Assembly (NCBI GenBank): GCA_031549385.1
Contig: JAVBPW010000001.1
Location: 1 to 64,000, forward strand
Direction: 5' to 3'
Length of the DNA stretch: 64,000 nucleotides
From: Alphaproteobacteria bacterium
GTDB taxonomy: Bacteria > Pseudomonadota > Alphaproteobacteria > Rs-D84 > SZUA-605
Part shown: in pieces, positions 47,502-59,404 of the stretch
Layout: each line of letters starts with the position of its first letter
Position numbering within the stretch: position 1 is the first letter of the stretch
Notes under the pieces: model-generated
Told to the model about the DNA's origin: nothing
Databases searched by the model: none
Seen by the model: the letters and a program-made list of their open reading frames with translations, nothing else
Program-made: the position numbers and the translations under genes

Positions 47502-49955
47502 ATGGAAAAGAAAAAATTTAATTTTTGGAGATTTTTATTTAAAAGTATTTTTTATGTTACTTTTATTATATTTTTAGCAACTGTATTTTTGTTTTTTAAA
47601 TATGGTACTAATTTACCTAATTACGAACAACTAGCAAATTATAAACCATCACTTTCATCTCGTTTCTTTGCAAAAGATGGATCTTTGCTTACTGAATATG
47701 CTGCAGAAAAAAGAATTTATATGGAATTAAAAGAAATTCCTCAAAACGTTATTGATGCTTTTATTTCTGCTGAAGATAAAAATTTTTATTCACATTCTGG
47801 TGTAGATTTTACTGGTCTTGCTAGAGCTATGCTTGGTAACATTAAGAATGTTCTTTCTGGTTCAAAAAAACGACCTACTGGAGCTTCTACTATTACTCAA
47901 CAGGTTTCTAAAAACTTCTTTTTAAGTTCTGACCTTTCTGTTGGACGTAAAATTAAAGAAATGATTCTATCTTTGAAAATAGAACGTACTTTTACTAAAG
48001 ACCATATCTTAACACTTTATTTAAATAAAATTTATCTTGGTTATTATTCTTATGGAGTTGCTGCTGCTGCTCATAATTACTTTGATAAATCTTTAGATCA
48101 ATTAACTTTAGGCGAAGCTGCATTCTTGGCTGCTCTTCCTAAAGCTCCTAATAATTATAATCCTATTTCAAATAAAGACAGAGCTATTGAACGTCGTAAT
48201 TGGGTTTTATGGAGAATGTTGAAAAATAAAAAAATTAATGATGAACAATATAATACTGCCCTTGCTGAAGATTTAGTTGTTTCAAGTAAATTTAATAATA
48301 ATTTACATTTTTACTCAATGTATTTTGCAGAAGAAGTTAGAAAAACTGTGTCTGAACAATTTTCTAATGATATTTTATATCAAGAAGGATTTTCTGTATT
48401 TACTACTATGGATCCAGAAATTCAAAAACTTGCAACTGTTGCTCTTAAAAATGGTATCGTTAATTATGACAGAAACAATGGATACAGAGGTCCTCTTGGA
48501 ACTATGAAAGACGTTTCAGAATGGAGAAGAAGTTTAGTTAATGATTTTTCTAAACCTGCTGGAATTCCTAAAACTTGGGAAATGGCTGTTGTGTTAAATG
48601 TTACAAATGAAGAAGCTGAAATTGGTTTAGAAAATAATTCTAAAGGTGTTATTCCTGTTAAAAATCTTGGTTGGGCAAGAAAGAATTTGAAAGATCAAAG
48701 ACTTGGTGAAGAAATTAAATCTGCTAGACAAGTGTTAAAAGTTGGTGATGTTATCTTAGTTGAAAATGATAAAGAAAACTCATACAAACTTACACAAAAT
48801 CCTAATGTAAATGGAGCTATGATTGTTATGGACCCATATACTGGAAAAGTTTTTGCTATGGTTGGTGGATATGCTTTTGAACAATCTAAATTCAACAGAG
48901 TTACACAAGCTCAACGTCAAGTTGGTTCTATTATAAAACCATTCATTTATTTGACTGCTTTGCAAAAAGATGAATATACTCCATTTACGATTTTATTAGA
49001 CGCTCCTGTTGTTATGGACAGAGGTGAAGATGAAGGTCTTTGGAAACCTGAAAATTATGAAAAAAATTTCAGAGGTAATTTAACTCTAAGATCAGCACTT
49101 GAATTATCACGTAACTCCCCTACTATCCGTTTGGCTCAAGAATTAGGTATTAGTGAAATTAGTGATACTTTTAGAAAGTTTGGAATCTATAACCGTGATA
49201 TGACTAAGAGTGGGCTTTCTATTGCTCTTGGAAGTGGTGAAACAACTTTAATTAAAATGGCTGGTGCATTTTCTACATTTGCTAATGGAGGATATAAAAT
49301 TACTCCTTACTATATTGAAAAAGTTCAAGACAGAAATGGAAAAAACATCTATAAAAATGAAACTAGAGAATGTGATGTTTGCAGATCTTCTGTTTTAAAT
49401 AATAGTCAAACACCTGCTATAACAGATAATCGTGAAGTTATTCTTGATCCTCAAACTAACTATCAAATTATATCTATATTAAAAGGTGTGATTGAAAGAG
49501 GGTCTGGAACAAGAGCTTTTATTCCTGGTGCTTATTTAGCAGGAAAAACAGGAACATCTTCTGACTTTAAAGATGCTTGGTTTGTAGGATTTTCTGACAA
49601 CTTACTTGTTGGTATTTATATCGGATTTGATAAACCTTCTTCTCTTGGAAATTATGGAAGCGGTGGATTAGTTGCTGCGCCTATATTTAAAGAATTTATG
49701 GAACAAGCTTTGAAAATGTATCCTTCAAAAGATTTCAAAGTGCCAGATGGAATTACATTCATAAGATTGAATAAACAAACTGGAAACTATGCTGAACCAG
49801 GTGACGAATCTGTTATAGTTGAAGCTGTTAAAGATTCCCAAATGAACAAGATTCAAAAGTCTAGTGAAGTACAACCTGAAGAAGAACATATTATAAGAGG
49901 AAAAGGCGTTAAAGTAGAACAAAACTATGACGCAGATATTGGCGGACTTTATTAA
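47502..49955 (+). CDS. mrcA: Penicillin-binding protein 1A
   Basis: EDKNFYSH.G, GASTITQQ, SIIK, SRN, KTGT. Confidence 0.93.
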   Translation: MEKKKFNFWRFLFKSIFYVTFIIFLATVFLFFKYGTNLPNYEQLANYKPSLSSRFFAKDGSLLTEYAAEKRIYMELKEIPQNVIDAFISAEDKNFYSHSGVDFTGLARAMLGNIKNVLSGSKKRPTGASTITQQVSKNFFLSSDLSVGRKIKEMILSLKIERTFTKDHILTLYLNKIYLGYYSYGVAAAAHNYFDKSLDQLTLGEAAFLAALPKAPNNYNPISNKDRAIERRNWVLWRMLKNKKINDEQYNTALAEDLVVSSKFNNNLHFYSMYFAEEVRKTVSEQFSNDILYQEGFSVFTTMDPEIQKLATVALKNGIVNYDRNNGYRGPLGTMKDVSEWRRSLVNDFSKPAGIPKTWEMAVVLNVTNEEAEIGLENNSKGVIPVKNLGWARKNLKDQRLGEEIKSARQVLKVGDVILVENDKENSYKLTQNPNVNGAMIVMDPYTGKVFAMVGGYAFEQSKFNRVTQAQRQVGSIIKPFIYLTALQKDEYTPFTILLDAPVVMDRGEDEGLWKPENYEKNFRGNLTLRSALELSRNSPTIRLAQELGISEISDTFRKFGIYNRDMTKSGLSIALGSGETTLIKMAGAFSTFANGGYKITPYYIEKVQDRNGKNIYKNETRECDVCRSSVLNNSQTPAITDNREVILDPQTNYQIISILKGVIERGSGTRAFIPGAYLAGKTGTSSDFKDAWFVGFSDNLLVGIYIGFDKPSSLGNYGSGGLVAAPIFKEFMEQALKMYPSKDFKVPDGITFIRLNKQTGNYAEPGDESVIVEAVKDSQMNKIQKSSEVQPEEEHIIRGKGVKVEQNYDADIGGLY

Positions 49956-50548
49956 TGAAAAAAATTAATTTGGCTGTTTATGATTTCGACGGAACTTTAG
50001 TACCTTTTGAAACTCAATCAAAAATATTATCTTTTGCAATTAAAAAGAATCCTTCAAAGATTCTTTTTTTACCTTATGTGTTAATATGTTTTGTTTTATA
50101 TTTGCTAAAAATTGTTAATGAAACTTATATGAAAAGTTTGGTATTAAAATTCTTAAATAAAAAACTTATAAAAGAATTCTGGCAAACACATGAAAAATAT
50201 CTTTTTAATTGGGTAAAGACAAAATTTGCTCAAGATAAAAAAGATGGAAAAGAGGTTTTTGTTATTTCTGCTTCTCCTGAAAATGTTTTGAAAGATTTTG
50301 TTATGAGAATCGGGGCTGATTATTTTATTGGAACACCTGTTTCAAAAGATGGAAAACGAATCATTGGAAAAAATTGCAAAGGAGTTCAAAAAATTGTATA
50401 CTTAAACAAATGGGCTGAAGAGAATCATCTTGATACTGTTATTGAATCTATGTATTCAGATTCTAAAAATGATTTACCTTTAATGAGATTAGCTAAAATC
50501 TCTTTCTGGGTTGATACTTCAGGAAATTTGAAGAAGTTTAACAAATAA
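49955..50548 (+). CDS. HAD-IB family hydrolase
   Basis: DFDGTL, ISAS, K, YSDS..D. Confidence 0.85.
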   Translation: MKKINLAVYDFDGTLVPFETQSKILSFAIKKNPSKILFLPYVLICFVLYLLKIVNETYMKSLVLKFLNKKLIKEFWQTHEKYLFNWVKTKFAQDKKDGKEVFVISASPENVLKDFVMRIGADYFIGTPVSKDGKRIIGKNCKGVQKIVYLNKWAEENHLDTVIESMYSDSKNDLPLMRLAKISFWVDTSGNLKKFNK

Positions 50549-50560
50549 AAAAGAGAGATT

Positions 50561-51436
50561 ATGCTATTTTTAAAACTTTTTTCTTCTGGGAAACAAAGTA
50601 ATAGCTTGGACGAAAAAAAAATCAAAAAAGAAATAAGATTTATTTTAAATAAAGCTGATGCACTTAGACCTGCATTTACAAAATATATAAAAGAGAATAT
50701 GGCTAAAGGACTGTCTTATGATATTGGCCCGACCAAAACTTTTGCTAGATCTTTTGAAAAAGTTATCAAAGAAAAAGGCGGTAATGTTTCTCGATTGAAA
50801 GATTCTTATCGTGGTGCTATTTATTTTGATACTCTTGAACAACTTTATTCTTTCATAGATAGATTAGTTAAATATCAAAATAAAGATTTTGAAATTATCC
50901 ATATTGAAGATTCTTTTTATCCTATTGTGGTAAGTGGAAATATTAAAATTCATCATGCACAAGCTGAGCTTACCTCAAGATTATATAGAGATATAAAAAT
51001 TATTGTTAATAGTAAAAAATGGAATATTCCAGGGGAAATTCAACTTCATTTTAATCAATATGTAACTGTGAAAGATGAAACTTATAGACTTTATGGAAAA
51101 GAAAGAGAATATATTTCTCAACTTAAACAAGGTTTCTTAAATGATGGAAGAAATATAAGAATTTTTAGAAAAATGATGAGATATAAAAAACAAACTATTG
51201 CTCTGAATGAACTTGCTATTATTAAATATAATTTAATTTCAAAAGATATTGAGTTTATGAAAACTAAAGATGTTGTTTATCTTTATATGAAGAAAAATAA
51301 AATTACCGATTATGATTATGCTCTTTATGAAATTATTGTTTCACGTACTGTTAAAGAATTAAAGTTTCGAAAGAATTTTTATTTGAAACAATTTTATAAA
51401 TATGATCTTGATTTTATAAAAGCTGTAATTTCTTAA
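50561..51436 (+). CDS. RelA/SpoT-type nucleotidyltransferase-domain protein
   Basis: K...R..EK, LKD..RG.I, YRDI, EIQLH motifs. Confidence 0.6.
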   Translation: MLFLKLFSSGKQSNSLDEKKIKKEIRFILNKADALRPAFTKYIKENMAKGLSYDIGPTKTFARSFEKVIKEKGGNVSRLKDSYRGAIYFDTLEQLYSFIDRLVKYQNKDFEIIHIEDSFYPIVVSGNIKIHHAQAELTSRLYRDIKIIVNSKKWNIPGEIQLHFNQYVTVKDETYRLYGKEREYISQLKQGFLNDGRNIRIFRKMMRYKKQTIALNELAIIKYNLISKDIEFMKTKDVVYLYMKKNKITDYDYALYEIIVSRTVKELKFRKNFYLKQFYKYDLDFIKAVIS

Positions 51437-51512
51437 AAAATAGAGCCCTCATCGCGAGGGCTCATGTTTTCAGTTAACACTACAACTTTATTGCATATTT
51501 TGCCAACTCTGG

Positions 51513-51677
51513 TCACTTAAAACCAACAGGGAACTTTGGCATCGTTTGCGCTTTTGACTTATTGGTTGCGGGAATATGCGAACCCGCGCTGGATGTGTGT
51601 GCCGTAAACGGCGATGAAGGAGAAAACACCTTCGGGATATCCAGGAACCAATTTAGCCATTTTATGACTTTGTGCAT
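51513..51677 (-). CDS. Possible 54-aa small protein MHKVIKWLNWF... (array unit A)
   Basis: Lies between TTGACT-N17-TAATTT (51737..51709) and terminator 51443..51463; AAACTTAA leader. Confidence 0.4.
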   Translation of the reverse strand: MHKVIKWLNWFLDIPKVFSPSSPFTAHTSSAGSHIPATNKSKAQTMPKFPVGFK

Positions 51678-51743
51678 TTATATTTTTATTTTTTAAGTTT
51701 GTCATATCAAATTAGCAAATAATTATTTTGAAGTCAATAGGAT

Positions 51744-51966
51744 AAAAAAATGCCCCGCTATCTCTCGATAGTTATGGGGGCAAATATATCTACACAGAAC
51801 TAATGATTTAATTCACTACTGCCAATAATCACAGCTACGTGAAGCCTGATGAAAAAAGCCTGAACATAATGTTAACTGGTTAAGTTTGTAACTTGATTCT
51901 TAGAGCTTTCTTTTAGTCCCCTCCAAAGGACGTTTGATTTTTTAAATAAAAAAGTTTTTAACGTGA
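51744..51966 (-). ncRNA. Candidate small transcript, array unit B
   Basis: TTGATT-N17-TATATT (52001..51973); terminator 51752..51781; only a 10-codon ATG ORF found. Confidence 0.5.
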
Positions 51967-52007
51967 GTTATCAATATAAATTTGTTTTATCTTTAAATCA
52001 AGCAAAT

Positions 52008-52471
52008 AAAAAAAGCCCCGCTATCTCACGACAGTTATGGGGGCTTTTGTAAAGTTATTCGATAGTTCTCGCGTCTACAAGGATACTACGAATAAAGGAA
52101 TATTCTTAAAAGAAACTTCTAGATATCTCACGACATGGGGAAGAAGTTTCTTTGATGAGACATATAATGAAGACATTATAGCTCAGCGGCATCTTTAAAA
52201 GCTCAAAGAGCTTTGTTAACGCGGGGAGAAAAGAGATCAGAACCCGAAGGCTCTTTGTCTTAACTCCCCCAAACGTGATGGAGGCACGTTTAATATTTTA
52301 TAAAGATACTTATTGTCTTTTAAAAAACCCAGCACGAGCTATGAAGACTCCTAAACCCCAGCGGAAAGGGGAATTTGGCACAGGAGTTACGTGCTGGGTT
52401 CGATTTTGCACCCTTGACCTCAAAGAGGTTGCGACAGTGCGGTGTATTTATTTAATTTTATTATTATGATT
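52008..52471 (-). ncRNA. Candidate ~460-nt structured RNA, array unit C
   Basis: TTGACA-N17-TAAATT (52506..52478); about eight stem-loops with GNRA and cUUCGg loops; terminator 52015..52044. Confidence 0.6.
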
Positions 52472-52525
52472 TCTAGTAATTTAGAATCTTTTTATAAATT
52501 TGTCAACCAAAAGATGAAGTTTAAT

Positions 52526-52709
52526 AAAAAAAATCCCCAGCATTAAAGCTGGGGGCGGAGTTAATACCCTTTATTCCCTTGTATTCAGGAGGATAAGTTC
52601 CGGTCATATACTTCTTATAATACAGCTCCTTAAGCCGCCCTTTTCGCTCGCCACTACTGGTGACGCCTTAATTCTCTTCTGTCCACTGTTTTATGTATTA
52701 ATAAGATGT
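52526..52709 (-). ncRNA. Candidate small transcript, array unit D
   Basis: TTGACT-N17-TAAAGT (52744..52716); terminator 52535..52554 plus U8. Confidence 0.5.
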
Positions 52710-52768
52710 AGCCTTACTTTATGAAAGATATTGGGATTAGTCAATAAAAAAAGCCCGTATTTCTTGGA

Positions 52769-52954
52769 TTATTGGTGCTTTTCTAGGAATGTTTTCAAAT
52801 CTTGAGCTAACAATTTCAAAGAACTGTCATAAATATTAGCATTAGATGCTTCCAGCTTTTGCTTTTGCATCACCTTTTTTGTGGTTTCTGATAATCCACC
52901 GTCAATTACTTGAAATTTTGATCTTTTTTCAAAAGGTGATTCTGGTAATGCCAT
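52769..52954 (-). CDS. Small hypothetical protein
   Basis: AAGGA RBS; FQVIDGG short motif. Confidence 0.55.
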   Translation of the reverse strand: MALPESPFEKRSKFQVIDGGLSETTKKVMQKQKLEASNANIYDSSLKLLAQDLKTFLEKHQ

Positions 52955-53044
52955 CTTTTTTGCTTTCCTTTGATTTTTGGTTGCTATTTCTCTTAAAACT
53001 TTTATTATTATATCATAATTTTTAAACTAAGGAAAGAAATTTTT

Positions 53045-55495
53045 ATGAAATTGTTAATAGTAGAGTCTCCTGCAAAAGCGAAAACCATCAATAAATATTT
53101 AGGTTCTGACTTCAAAGTTATTGCATCTGTAGGACATGTGAGGGATTTGAAGGCTGAAAATAATGCTGTGGATACTGAAAACAATTTTAAACCTTTATGG
53201 GAAGTTTCTAAAGACAAAGAAAAACAAATCAAAGAAATTGAAAAATTACTTAAGCAAGCTGATGAATTGTACCTCGCAACCGACCCTGATCGTGAAGGAG
53301 AGGCTATTTCTTGGCATTTATTGGATATTTTATCTGAAAAATCACCTATTACTATGCCTGTTAAACGAGTCGTATTCCATGAAATCACTAAAAAAGCTGT
53401 TCAGGAAGCAATGGCGAATCCAAGAGATATTGATCAAAACCTTGTAAATGCTTATATGGCACGCCGAATCCTCGATTATTTAGTAGGATTTAACTTATCC
53501 CCAGTTTTATGGAGAAAATTACCAGGATCTAAAGCTGCTGGTCGTGTTCAATCTGTAGCTACTCGATTAGTTGCTGAAAGAGAAGGCGAAATTGAAGATT
53601 TCGTTAAAGAAGAATTTTGGTCTATTGATGCTAAATTCAAAACTCAAGAAGGAAAAGAATTTGATAGTAAGCTTTGGACATATAATAATGAAAAGCTTGA
53701 AAAGTTTTCTATTAAAAATGAAAAACAAGCAAAGGAAATCGAATCCGAATTAAATAAACTTACTTATTTTGTTTCAAATGTAGAAAAAAAGAAAACTACA
53801 CGAAATCCATTTGCTCCATTTACCACTTCAACTTTACAACAGGAAGCTTCACGTAAACTTAGATTTGCTGCAAAGAAAACTATGCAAGTTGCTCAAAAGT
53901 TATATGAAAATGGACTTATCACTTATATGAGAACTGATAGTGTGAATTTGGCTCAAGATGCTGTTGTTGCTATTAGAAATGAAATTAATACAAATTATGG
54001 TGAAAAATATTTACCAGAAAAACCTATTGTATATGCTAATAAATCAAAGAATGCTCAAGAAGCTCACGAAGCTATTCGTCCTTCTGATGTTACTAAGTCA
54101 CATCGTAACTTAGATGGAATCGATGCAGATGGTATCAAACTTTACGAACTTATATGGAAAAGAACTATTGCTTCTCAAATGGAAAAAGCTCAATTTGACC
54201 AAGTATCTATTGATATTTCTTCTCAAGATAAAAAGAATACATTTAGAAGCGTTGGTACAACTTTAACATTTGATGGATATTTAAAAATATATAACGAAGA
54301 TAAAGATGATGACAACGATGATGAAGCATCAAAATTGTTGCCTCTTATGAATGAAGGTGAAAAATCTGATTTAGTTGAATTGAAATCTGAACAACATTTT
54401 ACTCAACCGCCTGCAAGATATTCTGAAGCGACACTCGTTAAGAAGCTGGAAGAATTAGGAATTGGAAGACCTTCTACTTATGCTGCTATTTTAGCGCGAA
54501 TCGTAGACCATGAATATGTTAAATTAGAAAAAATGAAATTCCATGCTACTGAACGTGGTCGTTTAGTTACTGCATTTTTAAAAAAATATTTTCCTATATA
54601 TGTTGAATATAATTTTACTGCTGGAATGGAAGATAAACTCGATGACATTTCAAATGGAGATATTGATTATTTGAAAATTTTAAGAGAATTTTGGGATCCA
54701 TTTATTTCTACTGTTAAAAATTCTTCTGGATTGCAACTTGAACAAATTGAAAAAGATTTACAAGAAGAATTAAAGAATCACTTATTCAAACCCCAAGACG
54801 GTGTTGATGTTTATAAATGTCCTGATTGTGCAGATGGAAAGCTTGGTTTAAAACTTGGAAAGTTTGGTGGGTTTATTGGATGTTCTAATTATCCTGAATG
54901 CAAATATACTAAACAAATTGTAACCAATGAAATTCCTGTTGCTGCTACTGATAAAAATGGCTCTAATGGAGATGCTGGATTAATCGGTAATGATAATGCA
55001 ACTGGTCTTGGTATTTATTTGAAAAAAGGACCTTATGGAAATTATTTACAACTTGGCGATAATGCGAATCATGTAAAAAGATTTTCATTACCTAAAAATT
55101 TTGACGAATCAACTTTGACTTTAGAAAAAGCACAAGAGTTTTTATCTTTGCCTAAAAAATTAAATGAAGAAATAGAAGTTGGTATTGGAAGATTTGGACC
55201 TTATATTAAACGCGCAAATGCATTTACTAAGATGCCTGCGAATCTTGATCCATTAACTATTACTCTTGATGAAGCATTAGAAATTTTAAAAGATGCTCCT
55301 TCACGAGAAGCTGCTATTAACTTAGGAGTCGAACCTAAATCAAAGAAAGATGTTTTATGGTATAAAACTGGTAGGTACGGACCTTATGTAAAATGCGGAA
55401 AAGTTTCTGCTTCTATTCCTGCGGAATATAAAGACAAAGAAATAGATTTGAAAATTGCTCTGCAAATCTTGAATGATAAAGTTAAAAAGAAATAG
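53045..55495 (+). CDS. topA: DNA topoisomerase I
   Basis: IVESPAKAKTI, ATDPDREGEAI, GRVQS, ITYMRTDS, AHEAIRP, GIGRPSTY, zinc ribbon. Confidence 0.98.
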   Translation: MKLLIVESPAKAKTINKYLGSDFKVIASVGHVRDLKAENNAVDTENNFKPLWEVSKDKEKQIKEIEKLLKQADELYLATDPDREGEAISWHLLDILSEKSPITMPVKRVVFHEITKKAVQEAMANPRDIDQNLVNAYMARRILDYLVGFNLSPVLWRKLPGSKAAGRVQSVATRLVAEREGEIEDFVKEEFWSIDAKFKTQEGKEFDSKLWTYNNEKLEKFSIKNEKQAKEIESELNKLTYFVSNVEKKKTTRNPFAPFTTSTLQQEASRKLRFAAKKTMQVAQKLYENGLITYMRTDSVNLAQDAVVAIRNEINTNYGEKYLPEKPIVYANKSKNAQEAHEAIRPSDVTKSHRNLDGIDADGIKLYELIWKRTIASQMEKAQFDQVSIDISSQDKKNTFRSVGTTLTFDGYLKIYNEDKDDDNDDEASKLLPLMNEGEKSDLVELKSEQHFTQPPARYSEATLVKKLEELGIGRPSTYAAILARIVDHEYVKLEKMKFHATERGRLVTAFLKKYFPIYVEYNFTAGMEDKLDDISNGDIDYLKILREFWDPFISTVKNSSGLQLEQIEKDLQEELKNHLFKPQDGVDVYKCPDCADGKLGLKLGKFGGFIGCSNYPECKYTKQIVTNEIPVAATDKNGSNGDAGLIGNDNATGLGIYLKKGPYGNYLQLGDNANHVKRFSLPKNFDESTLTLEKAQEFLSLPKKLNEEIEVGIGRFGPYIKRANAFTKMPANLDPLTITLDEALEILKDAPSREAAINLGVEPKSKKDVLWYKTGRYGPYVKCGKVSASIPAEYKDKEIDLKIALQILNDKVKKK

Positions 55496-56566: not shown

Positions 56567-59404
56567 ATGTCACAAAAACAAGATGATAAGAATTCAATAA
56601 TTGTAGATAAAAATATAGAACAAGTTGGTATAGTTAAGGAAATGGAAACAAGCTATCTTGAATATGCTATGTCCGTTATTGTTTCACGTGCACTTCCAGA
56701 TGTTCGAGATGGATTTAAACCAGTTCACAGACGTGTTCTTTATGGTATGAAAGAAAATGGGTCTACACATAATAAACCTTACACAAAATCTGCTAATACC
56801 GTTGGTTATGTTATGGGAAATTATCACCCTCATGGTGACACTGCTATTTATATGACACTTGTTCGTATGGCTCAACCATTTTCTATGGGATTGCCATTGA
56901 TTGATGGACAAGGAAACTTTGGTTCTATTGACGGTGATAGCCCTGCTGCTATGCGTTATACTGAATCTCGTTTAGCTTCTATTGCTCAACATCTTTTAGC
57001 TGATCTTGAAAAAGATGTGGTTGATTTTAGACCTAATTACGATGAACGTTTAATGGAACCTTCTGTACTTCCTGTAAAATTTCCACAACTTTTAGTTAAT
57101 GGAACTGGTGGTATTGCTGTTGGTATGGCTACAAATATTCCTACACACAACTTGGGTGAAGTTATTGATGCTACTATTGCTTTAATACATAACCCTGAAC
57201 TTACTGTTGAAGATTTGTTGCAATATGTACCTGCTCCTGATTTTCCAACTGGAGGTATGATTTTAGGTCGTCGTGGATCTCAATCTGCACTTCTTACAGG
57301 AAAAGGCTCAGTTGTTATGCGTGGACGCACTCATATTGAAGAAATCGGTGGACATGAAGCTATTATTGTTACTGAAATTCCATACCAAGTTAATAAAACT
57401 GAACTTATTAAAAAAATTCAAGAACTTGTTAAAGATAAAAAGATTGAAGGAATTTCTGCTATTCGTGATGAATCAGACAGACATGGAATTCGTTTAGTTG
57501 TTGAACTTAAAAAAGACGCTTTTGGTGAAATTATTTTAAATCAACTTTTCAAAATGACACCATTGCAAAGTAATTTCCCTGTAAACATGTTAGCTATTAG
57601 CAATGGAAGACCAGGTATTTTAAACTTGAAAGAAATATTAGATGCATTTATTGAATTCAGAAAAGAAGTTGTACGTAGATACTGTATTTTCGATTTAGAT
57701 AAATCTCGTAATAAAGCTCATAATTTAGTAGGACTTTCTATTGCTGTTGCTAATATCGACGAAGTTATTAATTTAATCCGTAAATCTAAAGATCCAAGAG
57801 ATGCTCGTGAACAATTGCTTGCTCGTGAATGGAACGCTGATGTTGTTGCTCCATTAATTGAACTTATCGATGATCCTTTAAGCAAAATTATTAACGGAAA
57901 ATATAAATTATCTGAAGCTCAAGCAAAAGCTATTCTTGATTTGCAATTACAAAAATTGACAGGGTTAGAACAAGATAAATTAGCTAATGAAATTACCGAA
58001 ATTGGTGTTGATATTAAAGATTTATTATCTATTTTACGTGATGAAAATAGAATCAAAGAAATTATTATAAATGATCTTAATGATATTAAAACTAATTATG
58101 CAGTTCCTCGTAGAACTGAAATTATCGAATCAGAATTTGAAGCTGATATTGAAGATTTAATTGCTCGTGAAGATATGGTTGTTACTGTTACAAACACAGG
58201 ATATATCAAACGTGTTCCATTATGTACTTATAAAGCTCAAAGACGTGGTGGTAAGGGACGTAATGCTATGAATACTAAAGAAGAAGATTATGTAACAAAA
58301 GTGTTTGTGGCAAATACACATACACCTATTTTATTCTTCTCTGATACAGGTCTTGCTTATAAATTAAAAGTTTATATGTTACCTCTTGGCTCACCTACTT
58401 CACTTGGAAAAGCTTTAGTAAATGTTCTTCCACTTCAAACTGGAGAAAGTATTTCTGAAATGATGCCACTTCCTGAAGATGAAGCATCATGGGATAATAT
58501 GTCTATTATGTTTGCTACACAAAAAGGAACTGTCAGACGTAATAAACTTTCTGATTTCCAAAGTGTAAGAGCTAATGGAAAGATTGCTATGAAATTAGAA
58601 AATGGAGAAAGATTAGTTAACGTTAAAGTTTGTGACGAATCACATGACGTGTTGCTATCTTTAAAAGGTGGAAAATGTATCCGCTTCCCTGCTTCTGCTA
58701 TCAGAGTTTTTGCTTCTCGTAATTCTGTTGGTGTTAGAGGTGTAAAACTTTCTAAAGGTGATGAGGTTATTTGTATGTCTATTATCAATCATACTGATTT
58801 AGATTCTGAAACACGTGCTGCTTATATCAAAGAATCACGCGCTCGCAGAAGAGATGAAGTATTGGCTGGAGATGAAGAGGCAAATACTACTTCAACTGTT
58901 ACACTATCTGAAGCAGATTTCAAAAAGTATGAAAGCGAAGAAGAATTCATTTTAACAGTTTCTGATACTGGATTTGGAAAACGTTCAAGTGCTTATGAAT
59001 ATAGAATTACTAACAGAGGTGGATCTGGAATTACTGGTATTAAACTTGGGGATAAATCTAAGGGAGTTGTTGCTTCTATGAAAATTGAAGATCATCAAGA
59101 AATTATACTTGTTACAGACCAAGGTAAGTTAATCAGAATTCCTGTAGAAAATATCAGAATTGCTGGAAGATCAACTATGGGTGTTACACTATTTAAAGTG
59201 GACGATAAAGAAAAAGTAGTTGGTGTTGCAGTTGTTGATATTGATGAAGATGAAAATGAAGAAGCATTCGAAAAATGCGATATTGATGCAGGAAATATTA
59301 TTGCTGATGAACTTGATAGCAGCAAAAATATAGAAACTGTAATTCAAGAAACTGAAGAAGTTGTTGAAGACGAAGGTGTTGTAAAGACAGATTTGTTTGA
59401 ATAA
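56567..59404 (+). CDS. gyrA: DNA gyrase subunit A
   Basis: RALPDVRDG, YHPHGD, AAMRYTE, GyrA box QRRGGKG. Confidence 0.98.
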   Translation: MSQKQDDKNSIIVDKNIEQVGIVKEMETSYLEYAMSVIVSRALPDVRDGFKPVHRRVLYGMKENGSTHNKPYTKSANTVGYVMGNYHPHGDTAIYMTLVRMAQPFSMGLPLIDGQGNFGSIDGDSPAAMRYTESRLASIAQHLLADLEKDVVDFRPNYDERLMEPSVLPVKFPQLLVNGTGGIAVGMATNIPTHNLGEVIDATIALIHNPELTVEDLLQYVPAPDFPTGGMILGRRGSQSALLTGKGSVVMRGRTHIEEIGGHEAIIVTEIPYQVNKTELIKKIQELVKDKKIEGISAIRDESDRHGIRLVVELKKDAFGEIILNQLFKMTPLQSNFPVNMLAISNGRPGILNLKEILDAFIEFRKEVVRRYCIFDLDKSRNKAHNLVGLSIAVANIDEVINLIRKSKDPRDAREQLLAREWNADVVAPLIELIDDPLSKIINGKYKLSEAQAKAILDLQLQKLTGLEQDKLANEITEIGVDIKDLLSILRDENRIKEIIINDLNDIKTNYAVPRRTEIIESEFEADIEDLIAREDMVVTVTNTGYIKRVPLCTYKAQRRGGKGRNAMNTKEEDYVTKVFVANTHTPILFFSDTGLAYKLKVYMLPLGSPTSLGKALVNVLPLQTGESISEMMPLPEDEASWDNMSIMFATQKGTVRRNKLSDFQSVRANGKIAMKLENGERLVNVKVCDESHDVLLSLKGGKCIRFPASAIRVFASRNSVGVRGVKLSKGDEVICMSIINHTDLDSETRAAYIKESRARRRDEVLAGDEEANTTSTVTLSEADFKKYESEEEFILTVSDTGFGKRSSAYEYRITNRGGSGITGIKLGDKSKGVVASMKIEDHQEIILVTDQGKLIRIPVENIRIAGRSTMGVTLFKVDDKEKVVGVAVVDIDEDENEEAFEKCDIDAGNIIADELDSSKNIETVIQETEEVVEDEGVVKTDLFE

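Follow-up and report, generated by a model that had tools for sequence, protein, structure and literature searches.

Intergenic small RNAs (sRNAs) are known from bacteria with reduced genomes, as are GC-rich islands of noncoding RNA in AT-rich genomes, and tandem sRNA clusters such as AbcR1/2 and the Brt arrays of Bartonella are built of paralogous copies. OLE, GOLLD and ROOL, as well as raiA and HEARO, belong to the large ornate RNAs. RNAIII and most Rsa sRNAs of Staphylococcus aureus block ribosome binding without Hfq, by pairing through UCCC-bearing loops (PMC2790875). Here, we analyzed a stretch of 64,000 nucleotides (the window, positions 1-64000 of contig C7) from a reduced gut alphaproteobacterial genome, and in particular a proposed noncoding RNA at 52008-52471 on its minus strand, at a locus adjoining the topoisomerase I gene. 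This strand forms a string of hairpins of extreme stability, is favored over the plus strand, holds no credible open reading frame (ORF) or known RNA family, and is matched by an exact RNA contig within the interval between a promoter-like and a terminator-like element. In our judgment, the chances are about even (probability about 0.5) that the locus represents a real noncoding RNA gene, transcribed independently and specific to the lineage, of a reduced gut symbiont. The most fitting label for it is that of a new orphan RNA gene, a real and expressed feature, where new means absent from Rfam 15, no literature search having been made for the lineage or the locus.

In common with RNAIII and the Rsa sRNAs (PMC2790875, PMC2837412), the locus has a long transcript, many independent hairpins and a terminator at its end. 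Unpaired C-rich elements with the potential to pair with Shine-Dalgarno (SD) sequences are a further likeness, here CCUCCAU and UCCCC by prediction and there UCCC (PMC2790875). The host is likewise low in GC, and action would likewise be independent of Hfq, neither Hfq nor ProQ domains having been found in the genome. In contrast, no sequence or covariance-model similarity is seen (no RNAIII or Rsa RNA is among the Rfam matches), the phylum is another one, no quorum-sensing context was observed, and there is no validated or conserved target here. The resemblance is one of mechanism only and not of membership. With OLE, GOLLD and ROOL (PMC12286853), the RNA shares a length of several hundred nucleotides, a high degree of structure, GNRA tetraloops available for possible tertiary or quaternary contacts, and a function that long stayed obscure. 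What defines the ornate RNAs, however, is deep covariation along with multi-way junctions and pseudoknots, whereas the present RNA is a string of local hairpins with no homologue and no Rfam match. Like the intergenic sRNAs of reduced genomes, it is expressed and GC-rich (0.45-0.53 against 0.30) and has a promoter and a terminator, both predicted, in a small AT-rich genome, but it is unusually long and stable (folding z score of about -8 to -9) and is part of an array of tandem units, not a solitary gene. The head-to-tail promoter-terminator units on one strand recall the AbcR1/2 and Brt clusters; unlike those, the units share only a terminator module and the junction motif TTTTTTATTGAC, not their bodies.

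In the maximum expected accuracy (MEA) structure with pairing probabilities, and in the centroid fold, nine confident local hairpins (H1-H9) were identified on the minus strand of 52008-52471, together with a tenth, low-probability hairpin in an AU-rich spacer (52320-52302). The predicted elements, in the order of transcription, are:

52478-52506, minus strand: promoter-like site, -35 TTGACA (52506-52501), 17-nt spacer, -10 TAAATT (52483-52478)
52008-52471, minus strand: predicted full transcript of ~464 nt, predicted start through U7
52441-52471, minus strand: AU-rich unpaired 5' leader, unpaired probability at least 0.7 throughout
52408-52440, minus strand: H1, outer stem GCAC/GUGC with inner ACCUC-UUU-GAGGU (folds)
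52401-52325, minus strand: H2, AACCCAGCACG/CGUGCUGGGUU with nested helices, and U6 at 52327-52322 (sequence reading and folds)
52295-52324, minus strand: AU-rich spacer with a weak promoter-like site, TTTAAA-18-TAAAAT (9/12)
52270-52292, minus strand: H3, AAACGUG/CACGUUU, 8-bp stem with the 7-nt loop CCUCCAU at 52284-52278 (MEA fold)
52223-52269, minus strand: H4, GGGGAG/CUCCCC, AAGA/UCUU and AGAGCC-UUCG-GGUUCU (folds)
52189-52222, minus strand: H5, AAAGCUC-UUU-GAGCUUU within a weaker outer stem (MEA fold)
52156-52185, minus strand: H6, UGAGCUAUAAUG-UCUU-CAUUAUAUGUCUCA (MEA fold)
52109-52153, minus strand: H7, AAAGAAACUUCU/AGAAGUUUCUUU as a perfect 12-bp stem, unpaired UCCCC (52141-52137) and AUGUC-GUGA-GAUAU
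52055-52095, minus strand: H8, UUAUUCG/CGAAUAA, hairpin UUUAUUCGUAG.../...CUAUCGAAUAA (MEA fold)
52008-52048, minus strand: H9, terminator-like, GCCCCC-AUAA-CUGUC-GUGA-GAUAG-CGGGGC (52044-52015) followed by U7 (52014-52008)

Nearly all stems had an unpaired probability near 0, and the ten predicted hairpin loops are UUU, UUUCCGCU, CAAUAAGUA, CCUCCAU, UUCG, UUU, UCUU, GUGA, AGAC and GUGA. H2 consists of a 12-bp base stem (AACCCAGCACGU...), a nested ACUCCUG/UAGGAGU helix and a CCCC/GGGG tip; together with U6 (52322-52401) it is a candidate for a leaky internal terminator. The H3 loop includes the anti-SD core CCUCC, CACCTCC being present at the 3' end of the 16S rRNA, and both this loop and the internal UCCCC of H7 have a predicted unpaired probability of at least 0.9. 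H9, the helix of which spans 52048-52011 in the fold, shows the arrangement of a Rho-independent terminator, with a GCCCC.../...GGGGC hairpin directly before U7. H2 and H9 were missed by a simple terminator scan, whose rule does not accommodate their loops and internal loops, and the terminator label for both is based on sequence reading and the folds. A copy of the H9 terminator with 2 mismatches closes the neighboring unit D at 51779-51745. In addition, the H9 tip UGUC-GUGA-GAUA, preceded by CCCCAU, recurs in H7, so that the GUGA tip UGUCGUGAGAU is found at 52135-52124 (H7) and 52033-52022 (H9), with a variant in the unit D terminator. This tip is letter-identical to a segment of a GUGA-capped hairpin in the organism's own 16S gene (C6:2308); the 11-letter identity is at about chance level, since we estimate that 4.4 kb of rRNA would by chance contain about one such 11-nt match.

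The minimum free energy of the RNA was -147.2 kcal/mol, compared with -100.6 +/- 5.9 kcal/mol for 100 dinucleotide shuffles (z -7.86), 0/100 of which folded as well. For 52010-52450, z was -8.95 on the minus and -5.72 on the plus strand. Native controls were six 441-nt coding windows, with z values from -0.97 to +1.74, and the genome's own RNase P RNA (z -2.55) and transfer-messenger RNA (tmRNA; z -1.02). Among the 134 pairs of the minus-strand structure there are 11 G-U pairs and 0 A-C 1x1 mismatches, and the same structure mirrored on the plus strand reaches -129.8 kcal/mol instead of -143.4 kcal/mol, a loss of 13.6 kcal/mol. The UUCG loop and the two GUGA loops are read as such on the minus strand only. 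The minus strand is favored by the z difference, the G-U versus A-C asymmetry, the tetraloops and the direction of the promoter-like site. This site, TTGACA-17-TAAATT, matches the consensus at 10/12 positions and was the best of 11 sites found by a pattern scan of 51300-53200; its position predicts a transcription start near 52471, which is also the boundary drawn in the original prediction. Every stem named in that prediction was present at its place and was recovered by both the centroid and the MEA folds, to which H6 was added here, and the UUCG and GNRA caps that it had read on the minus strand were found as one UUCG and two GUGA loops. The comparison with dinucleotide shuffles, which it had proposed as a check, was likewise in its favor.

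For evidence of transcription, public sequencing runs were screened and compared over 50000-54000 as assembled contigs only. Only one study among these runs contained this DNA, in a DNA run, which is possibly the source, and in a metatranscriptome, X2, where 30% of the sampled words were present. The metatranscriptome yielded the following match:

52038-52450, strandless: exact 413-nt X2 contig (record 11), 0 differences, 0 gaps, depth 13.8

The contig lies inside the predicted promoter-terminator interval and spans the internal U-tract. The depth of X2 was 0 in bins 50000-51473, 51742-52009 and 52546-52947, which include the genes for a HAD hydrolase and a 291-amino-acid protein as well as units A and D of the array described below. 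The topoisomerase I gene (topA) was seen in X2 only as 41-45-nt pieces with 3-4 differences, which derive from other organisms. Carry-over of DNA is argued against because the flanking genes and units have no RNA contig of the organism itself, and a pure GC-bias artefact is argued against because the GC of the topA windows is 0.35-0.43. That units A and D and the flanking genes lack contigs is taken as context only, beside the contig that is present. In another run, X3, next to none of the stretch was present.

With genetic code 11, no ORF of at least 60 amino acids was found inside the RNA on its own strand, and reading TGA as W (code 4) or TAG as Q gave only frames of 65-110 amino acids with 1-3 read-through codons. 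Small minus-strand ORFs of 33 (52176-52075), 32 (52335-52237) and 37 codons (52423-52310) are present, and the AUG of the first is buried by H6 in the predicted fold. The ORFs of 32-37 codons had no Pfam or NCBIfam match and no SD sequence at a proper distance. When the whole window was searched with the 4227 models of Rfam 15 at the gathering threshold, the sole match was tRNA-Phe. With E values up to 10 in 51300-53100, the RNA was overlapped by Phe_leader (22.0 bits, cut-off 55), ncr1175 (20.9 bits, cut-off 60), SpF22 (17.7, cut-off 55), BTnc231 (17.5, cut-off 80.4) and ctRNA_p42d (17.2, cut-off 50); these matches of 17-22 bits are driven by terminators and are at chance level. The Infernal and Rfam check thus gave no family.

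The original prediction had not recognized the RNA as RNase P RNA, tmRNA, signal recognition particle (SRP) RNA or 6S RNA, and this was borne out. The genome has its own copies of RNase P RNA (C7:375038-375325, 205 bits), of an alpha-type tmRNA (C7:155577-155929, 166.8 bits) and of SRP RNA (C2:47903-47991, E 8e-6; 33.9 bits, under the cut-off of 40), all lying elsewhere. 6S RNA is one extended, irregular hairpin of ~180 nt interrupted by a central bubble. Its model (RF00013) was matched neither here nor in the other genomes of the order that were searched, 41 in all (this genome, G000, and 40 relatives), and the fold of nine separate hairpins in place of one long helix speaks against a 6S identity, which was rejected. 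Sponges of the CsrB/RsmZ type carry many GGA motifs in hairpin loops; as GGA occurs in 0/10 of the predicted hairpin loops, this candidate was also rejected. A type I toxin mRNA combines a small hydrophobic ORF and a ribosome-binding site with an antisense or overlapping antitoxin RNA. Here, the small ORFs lack an SD sequence and a family match, and no antisense unit is predicted.

Homologues were searched for in several collections. In the organism's own genome, blastn returned only the duplicated terminator and AT-rich bits. Matches were obtained in 11/40 relatives (12/41 with G000), all of them 24-83-nt AT-rich or topA-edge pieces and none in the structured core, and in 4 non-self genomes among 400 of the class, only as pieces of the AU-rich leader and spacer. 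Phages gave no blastn match, and plasmids gave a 45-nt AT-rich piece only, in 2 records. Pattern scans of viral contigs gave 0 matches, apart from 1 match of a second pattern in a GC-rich coding region, which we judged to be chance, and a pattern scan of metagenome contigs gave 0. No credible RNA homologue was found at 34 topA-anchored loci on genome contigs (at most 60% identity) or at 19 metagenome loci (at most 61%), and in the same-family genome (G001), the topA of which is 61% identical, the upstream region is different. Two single-sequence covariance models (R1 and R2; none was built for H6-H9) were run against 150 genomes of the order, where the best non-self E values were 0.023 and 0.015, none of them credible; with filters off on 9 syntenic loci, the models gave terminator-like matches only. 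Overall, the matches obtained were AT-rich linker, topA edge or generic terminators. The collection of homologues, also proposed with the original prediction, therefore retrieved nothing credible with which to show the conservation of a structured noncoding RNA class. Of the claim of an undescribed structured noncoding RNA with repeated protein-binding loops, the structure and the absence of an Rfam family were upheld, while the repetition proved slight, UGUC-GUGA-GAUA being present only twice in the RNA, besides the unit D variant.

The spacer in which the RNA lies appears to contain four or five head-to-tail minus-strand units, with the next -35 element within a few bases of each terminator, and from these sequence features it looks like a tandem array of promoter-terminator units. 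Units B and C together make up the 460-nt RNA (in array order, A 52744-52535, B-C, D 52001-51745 and E 51737-51443). The other units are:

52530-52744, minus strand: unit A, promoter-like TTGACT-17-TAAAGT, terminator at 52554-52535 with U8 (fold z -1.39, no RNA contig)
51745-52001, minus strand: unit D, promoter-like TTGATT-17-TATATT, copy of the H9 terminator (fold z -0.59, no RNA contig)
51443-51737, strand ambiguous: unit E, GC-rich (~50%) island (RNA contigs at 51516-51634)

The exact RNA contigs at 51516-51634 in unit E are, with a depth of 159-183, the most abundant of the region, and an adapter-like loose end at 51507 places a molecule end at ~51508. The cues for its strand conflict, with a promoter-like site ending at 51501 on the plus strand versus a fold z of -3.15 on the minus strand (-0.37 on the plus strand); on the minus strand, a cloverleaf-like shape and a strong terminator (51463-51443) are seen. 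Its only Rfam match was sroD, below threshold (30.3 bits, cut-off 50).

A second array was found outside the window at C7:382318-383527 (positions 319-1528 of locus L104), flanked by a gene for a pseudouridine synthase and by the C-terminal end of a beta-clamp gene. This is the fourth-longest ORF-free stretch overall and the next longest outside the rRNA contig C6. Six near-consensus promoters (e.g., TTGACT-17-TATAAT) were read in it, each followed by a terminator and all on the plus strand, and there was no Rfam match. One of its units (L104:1345-1535) again consists of perfect hairpins in series (z -6.34), and another has z -1.75. For a 58-amino-acid ORF in one unit, no family match was obtained. 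What the two arrays have in common is limited to the junction motif and terminator tails. A crude genome-wide scan listed 37 promoter-to-terminator units in ORF-free DNA, some of which are tRNA genes.

For the 460-nt RNA we propose that a sigma-70-type promoter at 52506-52478 would drive one primary transcript of ~460 nt, that H2 with U6 would act as a leaky internal terminator, so that a ~150-nt 5' RNA and the full-length RNA may coexist, and that the perfect stems and the UUCG and GNRA caps would confer resistance to nucleases; taken jointly, these steps have in our view an even chance of being right. The RNA would then accumulate above the neighboring mRNAs because of this resistance. Action in trans without Hfq or ProQ is more doubtful. 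In this scheme, the H3 loop CCUCCAU and the internal H7 loop UCCCC would pair with SD or start regions and block initiation as in S. aureus RNAIII and Rsa, and we put forward such Hfq-independent pairing of C-rich loops with ribosome-binding sites only tentatively, by analogy. SD sequences appear to be used in this genome, because GGAG peaks at -13 to -9 before 177/839 crude gene starts and the 16S rRNA, ending in ...CACCTCCTT, has CCTCC at its 3' end. A 13-nt probe of the H3 loop gave -19.4 kcal/mol on the ribosome-binding-site windows of the crude gene starts, compared with -15.8 +/- 1.4 kcal/mol for 30 shuffled probes, 0/30 of which did as well. A still broader reading is speculative and rather unlikely, namely that two or more private RNA islands (51437-53007 and C7:382318-383527) of tandem, individually promoted and terminated, non-paralogous hairpin-string units represent an undescribed class of Hfq-independent stable RNAs. 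Such RNAs would act through anti-SD-like loops or as decoys or scaffolds and would form the main private regulatory repertoire of the lineage, with the 460-nt RNA as the largest expressed member.

Several observations weigh against an independent RNA gene with this mode of action. No homologue was found in any search, so that neither covariation nor proof of selection can be adduced, and the closest topA loci are only 53-61% identical. Expression was deduced from a single contig of a single run in a single study, which also holds the DNA; the RNA contigs give no strand, ends or level, and the 413-nt contig stops ~21 nt short of the predicted start and ~30 nt short of the predicted end. Units A and D are alike in layout, yet have neither an RNA contig nor a significant fold. 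Stems so long and perfect (z -9) are unlike those of the old conserved RNAs of this genome, and they may be of recent evolutionary origin, or selection may have acted on them solely as terminators. The case for anti-SD pairing is weak, as a contiguous CCUCC beats shuffles near-automatically, the gene starts are crude and there is no conserved target; for the H7 probe, 4/30 shuffles were as good. The evidence comes from a single genome and a single RNA contig, and does not yet distinguish function from mere stability.

The RNA might instead be the product of two tandem sRNA genes, one of ~150 nt (52471-52322, with H1, H2 and U6) and one of ~280 nt (~52288-52008, with H3-H9), each with its own promoter and terminator and with some read-through, and we regard this as quite possible, though somewhat short of probable. 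The U-tract that the original prediction suspected of dividing the RNA was confirmed at 52327-52322. A division there is plausible, since the 12-bp stem of H2 followed by U6 resembles a terminator and the promoter-like TTTAAA-18-TAAAAT lies between the halves. Each half is significantly structured alone (z -4.39 and -6.93), and the whole spacer as well as the second array is built as a terminator followed immediately by the next promoter. The internal promoter matches at only 9/12 positions, however, with a poor -35 element, and a 77-nt branched hairpin with only U4-6 before A4 would be an atypical terminator, uncalled by the scan. In addition, the single exact RNA contig bridges the junction. 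We consider it unlikely that the RNA is functionless, that is, a spacer of terminator palindromes that insulates convergent or divergent housekeeping genes, or young junk, with RNA that builds up solely through the protection from RNases that the hairpins give. The orphan status of the RNA, the different gene that relatives have directly upstream of topA, the unusually perfect stems, the recent duplicates (the H9 terminator in unit D and the H9 tip in H7) and the lack of RNA contigs for units A and D would all agree with such an origin. Yet a near-consensus promoter is directed into the region, and the 11 G-U pairs against 0 A-C mismatches, together with the stable tetraloops, argue for selection at the RNA level on one strand. 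Moreover, a 931-kb genome retains 1.57 kb here, its longest ORF-free stretch, and where one hairpin would suffice for a terminator, nine are present.

Binding or titration of a protein, possibly a ribosomal protein, by the UGUC-GUGA-GAUA hairpins or by the whole string would make the RNA a scaffold or decoy. This improbable explanation draws on the motif at 52135 and 52033 with its variant in the unit D terminator, on TGTCGTGAGAT in the 16S gene at C6:2308, and on an RNA abundance above that of the neighboring mRNAs. There are only two copies, though, which resemble a duplicated terminator tip, and the 11-nt match to the 16S gene is close to the chance expectation (own estimate). Nor is there a GGA loop, and hence no CsrA-sponge pattern, or an adjacent partner gene, the neighbors having no RNA-binding Pfam domain at cut-off (only a sub-threshold S1 in PBP1A). 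That the RNA serves as mRNA for one very small protein or several, such as a type I toxin-like peptide with a structure-locked start codon, is very improbable. Some structured toxin mRNAs bury the start codon in a hairpin, and the minus-strand ORFs of 33, 32 and 37 codons, the first with its AUG in H6, could be read in this way. Against this, no GGAG or AGGA precedes the 33-codon ORF at SD distance, the peptides have no clear membrane helix or Pfam match, no antisense RNA signal was seen, and ORFs of such sizes are expected by chance in a GC-richer island.

Genomes of <1 Mb shed nearly everything dispensable, yet the longest gene-free stretch of this genome holds small transcription units, and abundant RNA comes from at least 2 units of the array. 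Should the 460-nt RNA prove functional, it would represent a new family of RNA in an uncultured gut alphaproteobacterial lineage of reduced genome, without detected Hfq, ProQ or recognizable 6S RNA, and an entry to gene regulation in such organisms. If it is a mere by-product of terminator-like palindromes, it would serve as a warning that an extreme folding score together with RNA-seq coverage does not amount to a functional RNA.

The assembly comprises 931,143 bp in 8 contigs, is 97% complete and has a GC content of ~30%. The spacer (51437-53007, 1.57 kb) contains no ORF of at least 80 amino acids, is the longest of 87 ORF-free stretches genome-wide and exceeds any piece of the rRNA operon in length. 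Its GC peaks at 0.53 per 100 nt, the expressed RNA having 0.45-0.53. The genes identified around it in the window are:

47502-49955: PBP1A
49955-50548: HAD hydrolase
50561-51436, plus strand: 291-amino-acid ORF with no assigned family, convergent with the RNA array
53045-55495, plus strand: topA (topoisomerase I)
56567-59404: gyrA

The topA gene is at most 56-61% identical to those of uncultured gut and environmental Alphaproteobacteria known from metagenome-assembled genomes and of the only same-family genome compared. In the closest relatives, the gene directly upstream of topA is a different one, of 361-374 amino acids, the counterpart of which is located at C7:416115-417110 in this genome. 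The spacer as a pseudogene remnant of this gene was rejected, the best tblastn E value in the region being 3.4. Because the topA-adjacent gene of the relatives sits elsewhere here and left no remnant, the spacer is considered lineage-specific.

The 291-amino-acid ORF had no Pfam or NCBIfam match, and its relatives, at 22-28% identity, were found in 2/150 genomes of the order. A weak protein-atlas lead (score 0.83) connects it to a cluster in which 15% of the members carry RelA_SpoT. At the other end of the spacer, a 61-amino-acid ORF (52769-52954, minus strand) heads the array, divergent from topA; its ribosome-binding site is of the AGGA type and its promoter is TATAAT-like, and it had no family match in Pfam or NCBIfam. 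Elsewhere in the genome, ARAGORN reported an amber-reading tRNA with a CUA anticodon, labelled tRNA-Pyl, in the region C2:66723-66796 / 66626-66697 (minus strand), beside an odd tRNA with an uninterpretable anticodon loop. The CUA tRNA could be a hint of TAG read-through or a pseudo-tRNA.

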